From positions 8,486 to 72,485 of the forward strand of contig CAKOOK010000001.1 in assembly GCA_934098515.1 (NCBI GenBank): a stretch of DNA of 64,000 bases. Reading direction: 5' to 3'. Positions 30,264-35,207 of the stretch are shown here, one piece after another (within the stretch, counting starts at the first letter, position 1; each line of letters starts with the position of its first letter). Under the pieces are notes generated by a model that made no database searches, had not been told where the DNA came from, and saw only the letters and a program-made list of their open reading frames with translations. Source of the DNA: an uncultured Bacilli bacterium. Lineage in GTDB: Bacteria; Bacillota_I; Bacilli_A; RF39; UBA660. A program made the translations under genes and the position numbers.

Positions 30264-30451
30264 CATCTATCTAAACACTCTAAAGTGTACAATATATTAT
30301 ATTAAATTAAGTTAATATAAGAATAATTAATTAGCCCATATATAGTTTTTAATCAACTTTTTTATAAACAACAATTATCAAAAAGAATAAGCATACTACA
30401 ATCGTTCAGGCTCCGTCTACTTCTTTATTTAGTAAGCACTAATTAGTATTT

Positions 30452-30470
30452 TGGCCGCCACTGGCGACCA
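30452..30470. repeat. hairpin F of the DUF1016-associated hairpin family
   Basis: TGGCCGCC-act-GGCGACCA (7 of 8 pairs), then TTTT on the plus strand. Confidence 0.7.
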
Positions 30471-30540
30471 TTTTATATTTGAAAAGGCTTCTTAAAATCA
30501 TTTAGATATTTTGCTTTAATCATTAATATTTAACTCAATT

Positions 30541-30559
30541 TTGACCACATTGTGGTCAA
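30541..30559. repeat. hairpin E of the DUF1016-associated hairpin family
   Basis: TTGACCAC-att-GTGGTCAA (8 of 8 pairs), then T6. Followed in the gene sense by AATTGAGTTAAATATTAATG, a decayed copy of AATTAAGTTGGAGTCATTATG. Confidence 0.75.
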
Positions 30560-30800
30560 TTTTTTAATCATCAGTTAATTCATTATCTTCTTTTTTACCT
30601 AATTCTTCTAGAAAATTAGAAATATCTTCTTATATCAGTTTTTGTAATATCCTTTCTGATATTATTTCATTGTTCAGCTTATTTTTCTTTTAGAAAGATT
30701 TTTTTGATAACTTGATTAATATAATAATCTATTTCATTAGCATTATTTAAAGAAAAAAGAAATCTGTAATGTTACATTGTTAACCTTTCCGACAACGTCG
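30560..30800 (-). pseudogene. internally deleted DUF1016 remnant (copy D)
   Basis: Stretches align by eye with copy A, for example cagtttttgtaatatcctttctgatattat and acttgattaatataataatctatttcat. Encodes EDISNFLEELG, equivalent to DDITSFMKELG. No intact frame. Confidence 0.6.
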
Positions 30801-30803
30801 GGA
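30787..30803. repeat. hairpin D of the DUF1016-associated hairpin family
   Basis: TTCCGAC-aac-GTCGGGA (5 Watson-Crick pairs, one GU, one AU), then C and T5. Confidence 0.65.
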
Positions 30804-30818
30804 CTTTTTAATATTAAT

Positions 30819-31897: not shown

Positions 31898-31933
31898 ATT
31901 TCACTCCTTTCTACGGACTATATGTCTCAATTC

Positions 31934-32278
31934 TTAATTTACTTTTTTAGTCTTGAACATGATACTACCATCTTGAACTGTTCTATAAATTCTTGAACCA
32001 TCTAATTTATTTAACACTTCTTTATTTGGATGACCATACCTATTATTTTTGCTAACACTTATAATTGAATACATTGGATTAATATCATTTATAAAATCTT
32101 TACCTATTCCAGCATCCCCCATAAACATAAATTTACATACATCAAGTTTAGTATAAATAACATTACTATTATCATTCTCATTATCGTACTCTTTTGTTTG
32201 TAGGAAATGCAGTTTACTATTATCAATATTTAATTTTTTAATACATGAGTAATACTTAATATTTTTCTTATCTAACAT
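31934..32278 (-). pseudogene. duplicated comEC 3' end with internal deletion
   Basis: LDKKNIKYYSCIKKLNIDNSKLHFLQTKEYDNENDNSNVIYTKLD... is nearly identical to the ComEC C-terminus. It lacks about 30 codons, including the VGHHGS metallo-beta-lactamase segment. Confidence 0.85.
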
Positions 32279-32305
32279 CCATACTTATATTTCTGCTGCA
32301 TTATA

Positions 32306-33190
32306 TCAGAGTAATTTATATTCCCTAGCAATTATCCTATTATCTGAACAATATTTAATTACATATTCATTATCTTGCTTACAAATAATAATTCCTACTG
32401 TATCATTTTCTTCAATAGTTTTTATATTTTTATCAATATAATTCATATAATTTTGTATTTGTCCTGTATGATTCGAATTTAATTTAGTTACCTTTAATTC
32501 AATAACAACATAACATTTAAACCTAATATTATATAAAAGAAGGTCTATATAATTATAACTATTCCCTACTTTAATTTTAAATTCATTATCTATAAAACTA
32601 AATCCACTTCCTAATTCTTTCATAAACGAAGTAATATCATCTAATATTAGTTTTTGTAATAACTTTTCTGATATATTATCATAATTATAACTATTCTTAA
32701 TTAATATAGGATTTTTAACAAAATCCACAACGTTACTTTCTTCCTTATTTATTAATTTTAATCTGGTTTCTTTATCTAATCTTTTATATTCTCTTGATTT
32801 TACAATTGTTCTTAAGGTTCTAATATCAATATTATTAATACAAACTTGATTAATGTAATAATTAATTTCATCTATATTCTTTATGGGTAACAATTCAACA
32901 TAATGACTCCAACTTAATTGGTGCGACAATGTCGCACCTTTTTCAATTAACCAATAAAACTGTCTAATGCGTTTTAATAAAGTTGTATTATATTTTTTAT
33001 GAACCTCAGACTTAAGCCGTTCAGAATGTTGTTTAATAATATTTTCTCCGTAATGTTTGCCATCTTCCGAAATCATTTTTCCAACATTGTAATAAGTCTT
33101 TAGGTCGCTTTTGTTAATTGAATAATTCTTTACCTTCTTGTTTATCTCATTATTTAAAAGTTCATTTTTTATCTCATCATAATAATTCAT
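32306..33190 (-). CDS. DUF1016/YhcG-like PD-(D/E)XK nuclease, copy A
   Basis: HQLSWSHY, FMKELGSGFSFID, YIDLLLYNIRFKCYVVIELKVTKL. Start taken at MNYYDEIK with RBS GAAAGGAG; the ORF track extends to 33223. Confidence 0.75.
   Translation of the reverse strand: MNYYDEIKNELLNNEINKKVKNYSINKSDLKTYYNVGKMISEDGKHYGENIIKQHSERLKSEVHKKYNTTLLKRIRQFYWLIEKGATLSHQLSWSHYVELLPIKNIDEINYYINQVCINNIDIRTLRTIVKSREYKRLDKETRLKLINKEESNVVDFVKNPILIKNSYNYDNISEKLLQKLILDDITSFMKELGSGFSFIDNEFKIKVGNSYNYIDLLLYNIRFKCYVVIELKVTKLNSNHTGQIQNYMNYIDKNIKTIEENDTVGIIICKQDNEYVIKYCSDNRIIAREYKLL
32920..32938. repeat. hairpin A inside DUF1016 copy A
   Basis: GGTGCGAC-aat-GTCGCACC (8 of 8 pairs), then T5 on the plus strand. Encodes GATLSHQ on the minus strand. 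Confidence 0.8.
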
Positions 33191-33203
33191 ATTCCACTCC
33201 TTT

Positions 33204-35207
33204 CTATGGACTACAACTTTCAATTTTTAATTTATTATTTTTAATCTTCAACATGATACTACCATCTTGGTCTGTTCTATAAATTTTTGAACCATCTAAA
33301 TTATTTAACACTTCTTTATTGGGATGACCATATCTGTTGTTTTTGCCAACACTAATAATAGAATACTTTGGATTAATATCATTTATAAAATCTTTACCAC
33401 TACTTGTCTTACTTCCGTGGTGTCCTACTTTTAATATATCTATCTTAGATAGATTATACTTTTCTAAAATTTCTTTTTCTTTCTCTACTCCAGCATCACC
33501 CATAAACATAAACTTATAACCATCAAGTTTAGTATAAATAACATTACTATTATCATTTTCATTATCGTACTCTTTTGTTTGTAAGAAGTGCAGCTTACTA
33601 TTATCAATATTTAATTTTTTAATACATGAGTGATATTTAATATTTTTCTTATCTAACACCTTAATTAATTCTTTTTCTAAATTATTAAATTCACCACAAT
33701 TAAATATTACTTTGTCTACTTTAAAATTCTCTATTATATTTATTGCGTCTCCCATATGATCATAATCCCCATGAGTAAGTACCAAATAATCTATCTTACT
33801 TTTGCCAGTACTTTTTAAAAACTTTATTGTATTATCACTGACCTTTATATTGTCCTTACCACCAGTATCAATAAGCACAACTTTATGCTTGTTATAAATT
33901 ATTGAACTATCACCCTGCCCTACATCTAAAAAATGAACGTACGTATTAAAATCTACTAAAGGTTTTACCTTTATGCATAAAGTATAAATAATTATAAGTA
34001 ATATAAATATGTTACGATTCGTCTTTAAAAACATAAATAAAAATATATAATAAACAAAATAAAAAATAAGGCTTACTTTGGGGACAATGATATTAATCAT
34101 TATCAAGTGAGTACTTATAAATTTAAGAATACTAATAAGCACATTTAAAATTGGTTCTAAAAAACTAAAGATAAATGTTAAGATAGTAAGTGGATAAATT
34201 AATATACTTACTAAAGGAACAATAATCACGTTATTTATAATCTGCATTAAGTTGATTTCATAATTATAATAAAGTGTTATTGGTAAACTAAATAAAAAAG
34301 CAATAAAACTAGTTAAAAACATATTAATAAAATAATTCTTTTTCATATACTTATTAAATAAAATGAGACCTAAACTAACACTTACCGAATATAAAAATCC
34401 CATATCATATATAATTAATGGATTAAGAATAATTAAAGTGCAAACTACTAATAAAAGAACATTTACTGTACTTATTCTTAAATCTAATTTCTTATTTAAT
34501 ACTATGTAAATAAATAATAAAAGGCTTCTATAGATACTTGCTGAATAGTTGGTTATCATACTAAATAGAATTAAGAAAATGCATGCTATGATTTCTTTAA
34601 ATCGGCTTTTTTTAAAGACAAATAAAATTATTCCCGAAAGTAAATTTAAATGCATGCCACTGATTGCAAATAGATGACTTACACCATTTTTTTGAAATAT
34701 ACTATAGTCGTCCATTTCACTTTTATCACCAATTAAAAATGCTTTAAAGTAGTCACTATGCTTAAATTTTTCACTTCTCTTAATAATATAATTTTTTACT
34801 TTATATTTAACACTTCTAGTTTTAGAAATAAACTTAATATTATCAATCTTTACTAAATAATAGATATGATGATTATATAAATATTTCCTATAATTAAATG
34901 TATTTGGTATTGTGTTATTCTTAGGTTTATTAAGAGTTCCTGTAAAAGTTATCTTATCTCCTAAAGATATATTAAGTGGTTCTTTACTATAATATGAACC
35001 AATTATTTTTTCTTTAGATTTAATTGTAATCTTGTAATAATCATCATTATTCTTAATCTCGTCAATAATACCTACAAAAGAAGTCTCACTGCCATTAAAC
35101 TTTGATTCATTATGAAAAGAGTTTCTTATAAAAGTTAAGCATAAAACTAAGATAACTAAAATTATATAAAAATAATTATACTGTAATAAAGTCTTTAATC
35201 TTATCAA
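33204..35207 (-). CDS. comEC: DNA internalisation competence protein ComEC/Rec2
   Basis: Polytopic competence domain plus C-terminal metallo-beta-lactamase (FLDVGQGDS, LTHGDYDH, VGHHGS). Follows comEA. Confidence 0.88.
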   Translation of the reverse strand: MIRLKTLLQYNYFYIILVILVLCLTFIRNSFHNESKFNGSETSFVGIIDEIKNNDDYYKITIKSKEKIIGSYYSKEPLNISLGDKITFTGTLNKPKNNTIPNTFNYRKYLYNHHIYYLVKIDNIKFISKTRSVKYKVKNYIIKRSEKFKHSDYFKAFLIGDKSEMDDYSIFQKNGVSHLFAISGMHLNLLSGIILFVFKKSRFKEIIACIFLILFSMITNYSASIYRSLLLFIYIVLNKKLDLRISTVNVLLLVVCTLIILNPLIIYDMGFLYSVSVSLGLILFNKYMKKNYFINMFLTSFIAFLFSLPITLYYNYEINLMQIINNVIIVPLVSILIYPLTILTFIFSFLEPILNVLISILKFISTHLIMINIIVPKVSLIFYFVYYIFLFMFLKTNRNIFILLIIIYTLCIKVKPLVDFNTYVHFLDVGQGDSSIIYNKHKVVLIDTGGKDNIKVSDNTIKFLKSTGKSKIDYLVLTHGDYDHMGDAINIIENFKVDKVIFNCGEFNNLEKELIKVLDKKNIKYHSCIKKLNIDNSKLHFLQTKEYDNENDNSNVIYTKLDGYKFMFMGDAGVEKEKEILEKYNLSKIDILKVGHHGSKTSSGKDFINDINPKYSIISVGKNNRYGHPNKEVLNNLDGSKIYRTDQDGSIMLKIKNNKLKIESCSP

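Follow-up and report, generated by a model that had tools for sequence, protein, structure and literature searches.

Why the DNA downstream of a competence gene should hold a pile of diverged nuclease genes together with a second 3' end of that same gene is the question raised by the interval between comEC and rpsO in a 64-kb stretch of contig CAKOOK010000001.1 from an uncultured Bacilli bacterium; this whole stretch is referred to here as the window. An initial annotation, made from the letters of the DNA, had described the interval as a stack of at least five generations of one DUF1016/YhcG-like gene, and had proposed that distinct alleles of a selfish nuclease gene arrive repeatedly at the comEC 3' end, each bringing a replacement comEC end and pushing the older copies downstream. 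The present analysis finds that the stacked genes are alleles of independent origin, that the 3' part of comEC is horizontally transferred, and that the process runs through a whole clade and is not local to the window. The comEC-rpsO interval is probably a cassette array that is anchored on the comEC 3' part and was built by repeated recombination of modules. All genes around the stack lie on the minus strand of the window, and the stack itself consists of the following features (L numbers denote loci of other genomes).

33204..35207, minus strand: comEC, intact, 667 amino acids (TIGR00361 ComEC_Rec2 254 bits, cutoff 190; Pfam DUF4131, Competence and Lactamase_B)
33204..33773, minus strand: comEC 3' platform, from codon His479 (LTHGDYDH) to the stop, the horizontally exchanged part of comEC
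33191..33203, minus strand: conserved junction of the comEC stop TAG and the ribosome-binding site (RBS) AAAGGAG, abutting the cargo start codon; repeated at 31898-31913
32306..33190, minus strand: DUF1016/YhcG predicted nuclease gene copy A, 294 amino acids, top of the stack (Pfam PF17761 3e-22, PF06250 5e-35; PADLOC PDC-S02 2e-62)
31934..32278, minus strand: displaced, dead comEC 3' copy, codons 517-667, with an 87-nt in-frame deletion and a late frameshift (repeat families D2-D4)
31007..31897, minus strand: DUF1016/YhcG predicted nuclease gene copy B, 296 amino acids, second module (Pfam), with a degraded palindrome at 31621-31639
30814..31003, minus strand: remnant C, B-like codons 32-95, frameshifted, 87% identical to B (repeat families D6 and D8)
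30598..30809, minus strand: remnant D, hairpin D (30787-30803) and deleted pieces of codons ~103-116 and ~170-194, an L013-type allele
30532..30563, minus strand: stub E, palindrome 30541-30559 with short flanks, 32 nt of which are 97% identical to L004 12268-12299
30452..30470, minus strand: stub F, palindrome of the KWSPLATK allele type (L007, L017, L034), whose counterpart in L001 is perfect

Gene calls, Pfam searches, the repeat finder and a codon-level comparison recovered every element of the initial annotation on the minus strand, at or near the positions it had given. The resident ComEC is a full-length member of ComEC/Rec2, with THGDYDH of the HxHxDH motif at residues 478-484. Both tandem units came out of the repeat finder in register, and the codon-level comparison bears out the claim that the stop/RBS/start junction is kept in both. 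The stack as such is confirmed and holds at least six alleles (A and B intact, C to F as remnants), and the set of hairpins described in it is present with one addition, hairpin D, which had been missed.

One way to account for two such units is local tandem duplication of the comEC 3' end with the DUF1016 gene, followed by fast divergence of the nuclease and gene conversion of the comEC parts. The units are tandem and in register, as this account would have it, and high identity continues past the junction and covers the opening ~35 nt of either DUF1016 gene, which could reflect conversion. The two genes themselves, however, are 52% identical in protein, close to the half first counted by hand, and 63.5% identical in DNA, with a synonymous divergence (dS) of 1.45 and a ratio of nonsynonymous to synonymous divergence (dN/dS) of 0.27. 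The second comEC 3' copy, in contrast, is 90.6% identical in nucleotides to the resident comEC from codon 517 on, with a dS of 0.32, so the DUF1016 copies are the more diverged, as had been claimed. Because dN/dS is 0.27, both A and B are under purifying selection, and with dS saturated there is no sign of a burst of positive selection. Both also have much closer relatives in other species, each nearer than A is to B: A is 82% identical to P0005, which sits behind comEC of a quite different genome, and for B, copies with 77-80% identity are present in L017, L073 and L052. The stubs come from other allele types that are intact elsewhere, and the comEC 3' part is exchanged between species, as described below. 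A, B and the remnants are alleles of independent origin and not one gene duplicated in place. In-situ duplication with diversifying selection, for which the initial annotation had named dN/dS as a check, is thereby contradicted, and we consider local duplication in any form very improbable; the repeated arrival of distinct alleles fits the data.

The displaced comEC copy begins 27 nt past the stop of A. The in-frame deletion in it, first put at about 30 codons, comprises 29 and takes out VEKEKEILEKYNLSKIDILKVGHHGSKTSS, with loss of VGHHGS as described, and a 1-nt deletion lies near the end. The 114-amino-acid open reading frame (ORF) of this copy (32278-31934) has no Pfam match and, with VGHHGS lost, falls outside ComEC. 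Farther down, 900 nt without long ORFs separate copy B from rpsO. They begin with remnant C, which stops 7 nt past its hairpin (30820-30838); several DUF1016 remnants likewise end directly past the hairpin. The pieces of codons ~103-116 and ~170-194 occupy 30783-30598, where 30670-30598 is 79% identical to codons 170-194 of A, and 30809-30778 is 91% identical to L013. The hairpin regions of D, E and F match three separate alleles that are intact elsewhere, of the L013, L004 and L007 types. It is because A and B have relatives outside the window, and because the stubs match these further intact types, that the stack is taken to record at least six different alleles.

Could the stack be an assembly artefact of collapsed or expanded repeats or chimeric contigs? 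Its repeats, 350-570 nt long and 80-100% identical, have the length at which short reads are prone to mis-joins. The same gene order was nevertheless assembled in 23 contigs from different samples and studies, as found by a search with protein A, and the nearest species in the genome collection (L001; comEC 89%, pnp 99% identical) carries a homologous stack with different upper copies, a tail 96% identical to that of the window, and a fragment orthologous to the displaced comEC copy. Displaced native fragments in other loci, moreover, match host phylogeny. An artefact is thus scarcely credible.

The comparison of the comEC-rpsO interval was extended to 80 related species (L001-L080). These are uncultured bacteria of the gut and rumen whose genomes were deposited under Bacilli, Tenericutes or Erysipelotrichaceae, and the CAG-type names suggest that they belong to the RF39 group. 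Directly behind the resident comEC stands a DUF1016 gene in 36 of the 80 loci and a DinD-like gene in 19, while a few have other ORFs; the same stop/RBS junction precedes both kinds of cargo. Many loci hold extra comEC 3' fragments downstream, often followed by more DUF1016 copies, of which a further 15 sit behind such displaced fragments, or by other ORFs. In the ORF clustering, 32 comEC-fragment ORFs of 91-203 amino acids were counted in 30 loci. Long fragments mostly begin at residues 476-479, at the His of LTHGDYDH, and a second class begins at ~617, forming an internally deleted mini comEC that separates unrelated small ORFs (e.g. L033). At the other extreme, rpsO follows 333 nt after comEC in L011. 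Occupied and unoccupied states and differing stacks are therefore all found, as a comparison of relatives proposed at the outset was meant to reveal, and the process runs through the whole clade.

The comEC 3' part in these loci behaves as transferred DNA. ComEC of 77 relatives is ~0.2-0.55 identical to that of the window up to residue ~460 and 0.7-0.9 identical from ~480 to the end, including stretches without an obvious catalytic role. Identity at synonymous codons lies at a saturated baseline of 0.585 in the N-part and averages 0.69 in the C-part, and pairs whose N-parts are 0.33-0.43 identical have C-parts with 0.91-0.99 amino-acid and 0.85-1.0 synonymous-codon identity. Blocks of at least 90% identity between such distant species start within ~70 nt of codon 479 (-566 nt) in 23 of 34 cases; between resident and displaced comEC they start exactly at codon 479. 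Their other end is that of comEC or of the cargo gene. In one example, a comEC'-plus-DUF1016 block of 1,479 nt is 96% identical between L058 and L075. The C-part can also be the more different one in close relatives, being 73% identical in L004 where the N-part is 84% identical. That the 3' part is merely more conserved is ruled out for many pairs by synonymous identity of up to 100% together with displaced native ends. A link between platform and cargo type was looked for as well and was not found, the C-part identity being 0.777 in same-cargo and 0.788 in different-cargo pairs, which means that the platform is not tied to one type of cargo. The comEC 3' part is horizontally transferred, and the earlier proposal that replacement ends arrive with the alleles and push older ones downstream is sustained across the 80 species in that native ends are found displaced.

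Displaced fragments are of two kinds when compared with the window: platform-like ones, 72-88% identical, and divergent ones, 42-67% identical. The divergent fragments are reciprocal best matches of related hosts at near-equal offsets (L039/L051 and L024/L032) and track host phylogeny. The N-part of comEC in L175 is 75% identical to that of L024, and the divergent sequence is still in place in L175 as its functional 3' end; this native end is 81% identical to the displaced fragment of L024, which sits behind a right-end (RE) motif termed RE2. The pair thus allows an unoccupied state to be compared with an occupied one. Flanks of the two loci are 74% identical upstream and 92% downstream, a mosaic neighborhood, and L175 3918-6885 places an A-like DUF1016 gene (82%) flush behind the native-type comEC end, with the same CCATAGAAAGGAG junction.

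Two motifs lie directly upstream of the His479 codon of displaced fragments, RE1 (ATTCGACTTACTWWTTGACAATCACCA) in 22 loci and RE2 (ATTCGTATGCATAAACGTATGTCACCA) in 15. Both are restricted to the right ends of modules and lie on the comEC strand in every case; a terminator-like hairpin precedes them, and CAYGG comes next in nearly all cases. The RE1 junction was found in 109 metagenome stretches, and an in-frame comEC 3' fragment comes next in 69 of the 78 with enough downstream sequence. By eye, RE1 (e.g. L019 8793-8819) supplies a TTGACA that lies 16 nt ahead of the TATGAT contained in the DYDH codons, which would make a promoter of near-consensus sequence directed into the displaced module, and RE2 (e.g. 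L024 13486-13512) offers the displaced comEC fragment an in-frame ATG (MSPHGD...). Arrays of another layout, made up of unrelated small ORFs, were also seen in L033 (at least five cassettes, from ~12055 to ~19800), L040, L035, L066 and L073. In front of each ORF stand a terminator, the ATATGTACTAACTAC motif and a mini comEC 3' fragment of ~150 nt (residues ~617-667). These ORFs mostly have no Pfam match, one family is 571 amino acids long, and the layout is integron-like without an integrase.

Borders so exact might be the work of site-specific recombination of an integron-like or Xer-like kind, in which RE1, RE2, ATATGTACTAACTAC and the His479 region would serve as att-type sites for a recombinase encoded elsewhere. 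The confinement of RE1 and RE2 to module right ends, where they abut CAYGG, would fit this account, as would the L033-type arrays, with their five or more unrelated cassettes parted by mini comEC fragments, and the single orientation of all cassettes stacked from one anchor. Against it, no integrase stands beside comEC in the window or in most loci. In L080 four Xer-like ORFs are clustered 7-8 kb downstream of comEC (coordinates were read for one member), and the Phage_integrase genes of L175-L178, ~2 kb downstream of comEC, lie among genes syntenic with L024. The junctions could be inherited through homology, block ends between resident copies are variable, and the window has no RE motif. We regard a dedicated site-specific system as quite improbable.

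The reading preferred here, a cassette array built on the comEC platform, would work as follows. The circulating module would comprise a portable 3' segment of comEC (His479 to the stop when complete), the stop/RBS junction and one accessory gene, to which many lineages would add on the right side a terminator and the conserved ~27-nt right end. An incoming module would recombine with the resident comEC via the conserved 3' platform, whose best-conserved anchors would be a ~30-nt island coding for HGDYDHMGE and the stop/RBS junction; since all modules share platform, island and junction, foreign module DNA can recombine with the resident platform. In the recipient comEC would stay intact, its 5' part being the cell's own and its 3' part imported, while the previous 3' end and its cargo would be displaced downstream, lose their expression signals and decay by deletion. 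When DNA of the order platform-cargo-(RE)-platform meets a resident platform, the cargo would either be replaced or gain a new one inserted in front of it, which would give a stack. The simplest account needs no dedicated enzyme. Homologous or homeologous recombination of the RecA type would suffice for integration. The DNA would probably have entered by natural transformation, which suggests itself as the obvious route because comEA-comEC is kept intact in these genomes.

The genes bordering the stack bear on its expression.

35176..35829, minus strand: comEA, upstream of comEC (35829-35176)
30243..30264, minus strand: first sense-strand intrinsic-terminator-like site past comEC (terminator scan)
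29843..30112, minus strand: rpsO, the conserved downstream border, 100% identical in L001, with pnp next

The neighbors of the stack are truB, an acetyltransferase gene and comEA on one side and rpsO and pnp downstream. The scan found no sense-strand terminator between comEC and 30264-30243, and A and B both have good RBSs. With no earlier terminator, the whole stack appears to be co-transcribed with comEA-comEC, and A and B should, as predicted from these signals, be expressed with the uptake genes. The window has a G+C content of 29%, and it encodes a bacterial RNase P class B RNA (23407-23746, minus strand, 292 bits), which fits a host of the Bacillota/Mycoplasmatota type.

Several points weigh against this account of the array. 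Neither RE1 nor RE2 was found in the window, and the comEC duplicate there starts at codon 517, not at His479, with no terminator and no right-end motif; one comEC 3' duplicate alone survives, and B is not separated from remnant C by a comEC fragment. We take the codon-517 start to be a secondary deletion shared with L001, and since canonical borders are lacking, the account has to postulate secondary deletions or junctions of other types. Between species, platforms share only ~80% identity and would be poor RecA substrates, so that entry into a naive comEC would depend on the ~30-nt island, and the exact RE|His479 junctions beside different native ends could reflect a site-specific enzyme. 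The competence of these organisms is a prediction from their genes. Most of the sequences are metagenome-assembled contigs, in which conserved repeats can give chimeric joins, although such joins are disfavored because the displaced native ends track host phylogeny. Finally, with a nuclease and a DinD homologue as the two dominant cargo families, an active role of the cargo in its own spread is possible.

What the cargo may do is suggested by its families. DUF1016_N and YhcG_C follow each other in N-to-C order in both copies (79.5 and 121.1 bits in A, 93.0 and 115.4 bits in B; cutoffs 32.8 and 32.5), and E192, D216 and K233 are invariant, with E or D at position 231, in an alignment that includes E. 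coli YhcG and nine homologues from plasmids; D216 and E231-x-K233 are conserved in copy A, in accordance with the E...D...E/D-x-K motif described for the family (PMC1189080). An AlphaFold 2 (AF2) model of the DUF1016 protein, with a predicted local distance difference test score (pLDDT) of 73.6, has NucS (2vld_B, E 4e-3) as its best PDB match, followed by other PD-(D/E)XK nucleases, all of them weak matches; the sequence search for the same protein gave no PDB homologue. Literature searches on the DUF1016/YhcG family turned up no biochemical study of any member. PADLOC assigns copies A and B to PDC-S02 (2e-62 and 4e-60) and the DinD-like cargo of L022 to PDC-S13 (2.5e-101). A Bro-N domain is present in the DinD-like cargo, which matches NCBIfam PRK11525 (3e-104); DinD of E. 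coli is described as a RecA inhibitor. In L019 (7444-8763) and L072 (8719-10038) the DinD-like cargo carries a fused C-terminal extension in which a NUDIX-box-like sequence (GGHVLSGETPEVTLKRELEEELG) occurs. DUF1016 and RhuM/DinD genes are known as accessory genes within type I restriction-modification operons (PMC9881135), and in L088 a DUF1016 gene stands flush between hsdM and hsdS. From the PADLOC candidate matches and this known company, we infer that the cargo may act on incoming or foreign DNA, in defence or in the control of recombination. Pairwise breakpoint scans of 37 intact DUF1016 genes (L001-L080 and the window) indicate that the alleles are mosaic, with breakpoints clustering at codons ~140-160 and ~200-220 and identity stepping, for example, from 0.99 to 0.72 or from 0.63 to 0.98, steps to which rate heterogeneity along the gene may contribute. 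Such mosaicism implies that recombination is active at these loci.

A nuclease that is so often the cargo might itself drive the array by homing, as the initial annotation had supposed: DUF1016 would break unoccupied or differently occupied alleles, repair would copy the module in, and the replacement comEC 3' end would take the role that splicing has for intron-borne endonucleases. Insertion is precise and recurrent in the most conserved catalytic-motif codons of a conserved gene, a typical homing target, and related genomes show occupied and unoccupied states with a precise junction (the native end in place in L175 and displaced behind RE2 in L024; the short comEC-rpsO interval of L011). The cargo would be a PD-(D/E)XK nuclease with intact catalytic residues and, judging by the weak structural matches, a NucS-like fold; DUF1016 genes occur flush inside other operons, as in the hsdM-DUF1016-hsdS order of L088 (PMC9881135), and alleles turn over fast among close relatives. 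Yet the endonuclease is not always encoded: the same His479 border, junction and right ends carry DinD-like (Bro-N) genes in 19 loci and unrelated ORFs without a nuclease, which speaks against DUF1016 as a selfish site-specific driver. The platform is not cargo-specific, the DUF1016 gene of L175 behind a native comEC end means that nuclease gene and platform are separable, and an occupied comEC retains an intact 478|479 junction. Transforming DNA, moreover, is single-stranded and unexpressed, so that co-residence of the two alleles needs another route. Judged on gene content, homing by the DUF1016 nuclease is not supported in the form proposed, and we consider it unlikely.

A further possibility, which we hold to be rather doubtful, is that the modules are selfish cassettes that spread by transformation with their own homology arm, that the cargo controls further incoming DNA, and that the palindrome described below is a mark on single-stranded DNA. 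The choice of comEC may then reflect that it is the gene every transformable recipient must have. A NucS-like or resolvase-like DUF1016 protein, or a RecA inhibitor of the DinD type, could block or bias recombination and so shield the module, and the hairpin would mark incoming or replicating DNA for the nuclease, allele-specific stems being then a matter of competition between alleles.

The DUF1016 genes contain a palindrome whose form in the window is a hairpin with an 8-bp stem and a 3-nt loop.

32938-32920, minus strand: hairpin A, GGTGCGAC ATT GTCGCACC, encoding loop residues ~85-91, just before LSWSHY, -9.4 kcal/mol
31639-31621, minus strand: hairpin B, degraded, with a T-T mismatch, -3.5 kcal/mol, z -0.2
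30838-30820, minus strand: hairpin C, within remnant C
30803-30787, minus strand: hairpin D, L013-type
30559-30541, minus strand: hairpin E, perfect palindrome TTGACCAC AAT GTGGTCAA, -7.2 kcal/mol
30470-30452, minus strand: hairpin F, TGGTCGCC AGT GGCGGCCA, with one T.G pair, -7.3 kcal/mol

Perfect 8-bp/3-nt hairpins with at least three G+C pairs occur twice in the 64 kb, both times within the stack, and A, E and F, with folding z-scores of -5.3 to -3.5, are far stabler than shuffled sequence. In the clade, 33 of 48 matches to the LSWSHY motif have a perfect, G+C-rich 8-bp stem with a 3-nt loop in front of them, its end 2 nt from the Leu codon, and at least 13 different stem sequences are found among these hairpins. 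The feature is family-wide: in many phyla (L082-L091, L095-L174) a stem of 7-15 bp with a 3-nt loop always lies just before the (Q)L[SP]W[SG]H motif. E. coli K-12 yhcG has a palindrome of 15+3+15 nt in the same place (L081 8205-8237), and so, often with a longer one, do Vibrio, Shewanella, Burkholderia, Paenarthrobacter, Acidisarcina and most of 67 viral-contig genes; stems of at least 7 bp are perfect at 59 of 85 unique sites. Across 57 aligned sites, preselected for at least five perfect pairs, 83.5% of cells pair as against 54.7% in shuffles and ~33% in slid controls, and the covariation score of 0.669 (0.149 in shuffles) was reached by none of 500 shuffles. The inner eight pairs change on both sides only, never through G-U, in these 57 sequences, and 7 of the 13 interior stem mismatches seen family-wide are C.A on the sense strand, which is G.U on the antisense strand. 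Such strict Watson-Crick pairing favors a structure at the DNA level or on the antisense strand over an ordinary RNA helix, without settling the question. Synonymous recoding of the same peptides gave a mean best stem of 3.0 bp against the 7.5 bp observed, which rules out the hairpin as a by-product of the protein sequence. These comparisons mean that the palindrome is kept at the level of the nucleic acid, either by selection or by template switching of the palindrome-correcting kind. At the protein level it encodes, in the AF2 model, a predicted surface loop between two helices. A role as recombination site between intact alleles was considered and rejected, as the breakpoints lie at codons ~140-160 and ~200-220 and the hairpin at codons ~85-93.

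The hairpins are ten times denser in the arrays of this locus set than elsewhere (0.156 against 0.016 per kb). In L001 one hairpin unit (13391-13409), flanked as usual by AAAAA ... AATTAAG, forms a clean insertion that parts the stop of the displaced comEC fragment from the RBS belonging to the following DUF1016 gene. This insertion, like stubs E and F, indicates that hairpin units also occur as orphans, in L001 outside DUF1016 coding sequence. Some long members of the family carry the palindrome peptide twice in tandem, as EIHQTMSGE ... KIWQTLSAKS in E. coli (L081 7828-8955) and as RIVQTLSAQS ... RIVPTASAKS in Burkholderia (L091), which suggests local duplication of the hairpin unit within the gene. 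Read on the plus strand, antisense to the DUF1016 genes, the hairpins at 32920-32938, 30787-30803 and 30541-30559 each run on into TTTTT, and the terminator scan scores them as intrinsic terminators; 29800-36000 has six such terminator-like sites against 0.8 expected. The antisense hairpin with TTTTT is seen in the A+T-rich clade and not in G+C-rich relatives. Rfam gave no match for the hairpins at the gathering threshold in the window and none at E<=1 in 30100-33300.

Literature searches for DUF1016, yhcG, comEC hotspots and PDC-S02 found no description of the cassette array or of the DUF1016 palindrome, so that the array has to be set beside systems known from other genes. In the orphan arrays of rhs and cdiA, displaced 3' tips and their partner genes lie downstream of the main gene. 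As there, a new 3' segment with an adjacent small gene takes over the reading frame, the old segment and its partner are left downstream as a 5'-truncated orphan, repetition gives stacks, and homology at the start of the segment is the anchor. Unlike there, the host gene is not a toxin gene but that of the DNA-uptake channel, what is imported is the conserved and not the variable part (~80% identity between species with N-parts ~37% identical), and the partners are nuclease or DinD-like genes, not immunity genes, with no toxin-immunity pairing and with a platform that is not cargo-specific. Free-standing homing endonuclease genes such as T4 seg and mob, which spread by intronless homing, resemble the array in that a nuclease gene sits flush between genes at a conserved site, its presence varies among relatives, and flanking host sequence is co-converted; the comEC framework differs in that it also carries non-nuclease cargo, that any cleavage is putative, and that the old half of the target is kept as a displaced fragment and not replaced.

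With integrons the array has in common single-gene, promoterless cassettes in one orientation, a fixed anchor with the newest cassette nearest to it and, in the L033 type, boundary repeats. Adjacent intI and attC-type imperfect palindromes at each cassette are absent, however; the borders are comEC fragments and RE motifs, so that the boundary repeats are pieces of host coding sequence, and the anchor lies inside a functional gene that the incoming DNA repairs. Minimal mobile elements of Neisseria and defence-island hotspots share the variable interval, here comEC-rpsO, and the defence-candidate genes without mobility genes, and homologous recombination is the likely vehicle in accessory-gene hotspots as well, but in the present case the left homology arm is carried along, duplicated and swept through the clade, which leaves a fossil record of displaced ends. 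The DUF1016 and RhuM/DinD genes embedded between hsdM and hsdS (PMC9881135; PDC-S02, PDC-S13) belong to the same two families and are likewise single genes flush in another operon, whereas here the host is the competence operon, a replacement 3' end of the upstream gene comes along, and stacks form. By this analogy the array seems to work most like the rhs/cdi orphan arrays combined with homology-driven accessory-gene hotspots, and is a member of neither, nor an integron or a homing-endonuclease element as these are defined.

If this reading is true, comEC joins the short list of genes whose ends are serially replaced and leave a readable fossil record, and horizontal transfer has carried part of a core competence gene across a large bacterial group of the gut and rumen. 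The arrays would also show that a build-up of cassettes is possible without an integrase. The palindrome of the DUF1016 genes, present even in yhcG of E. coli K-12, offers a simple experimental handle on the family. For DUF1016/YhcG (PDC-S02) and DinD/RhuM-like proteins (PDC-S13), both widespread families, their placement in a DNA-uptake operon would supply a functional context, that is, the control of incoming DNA.

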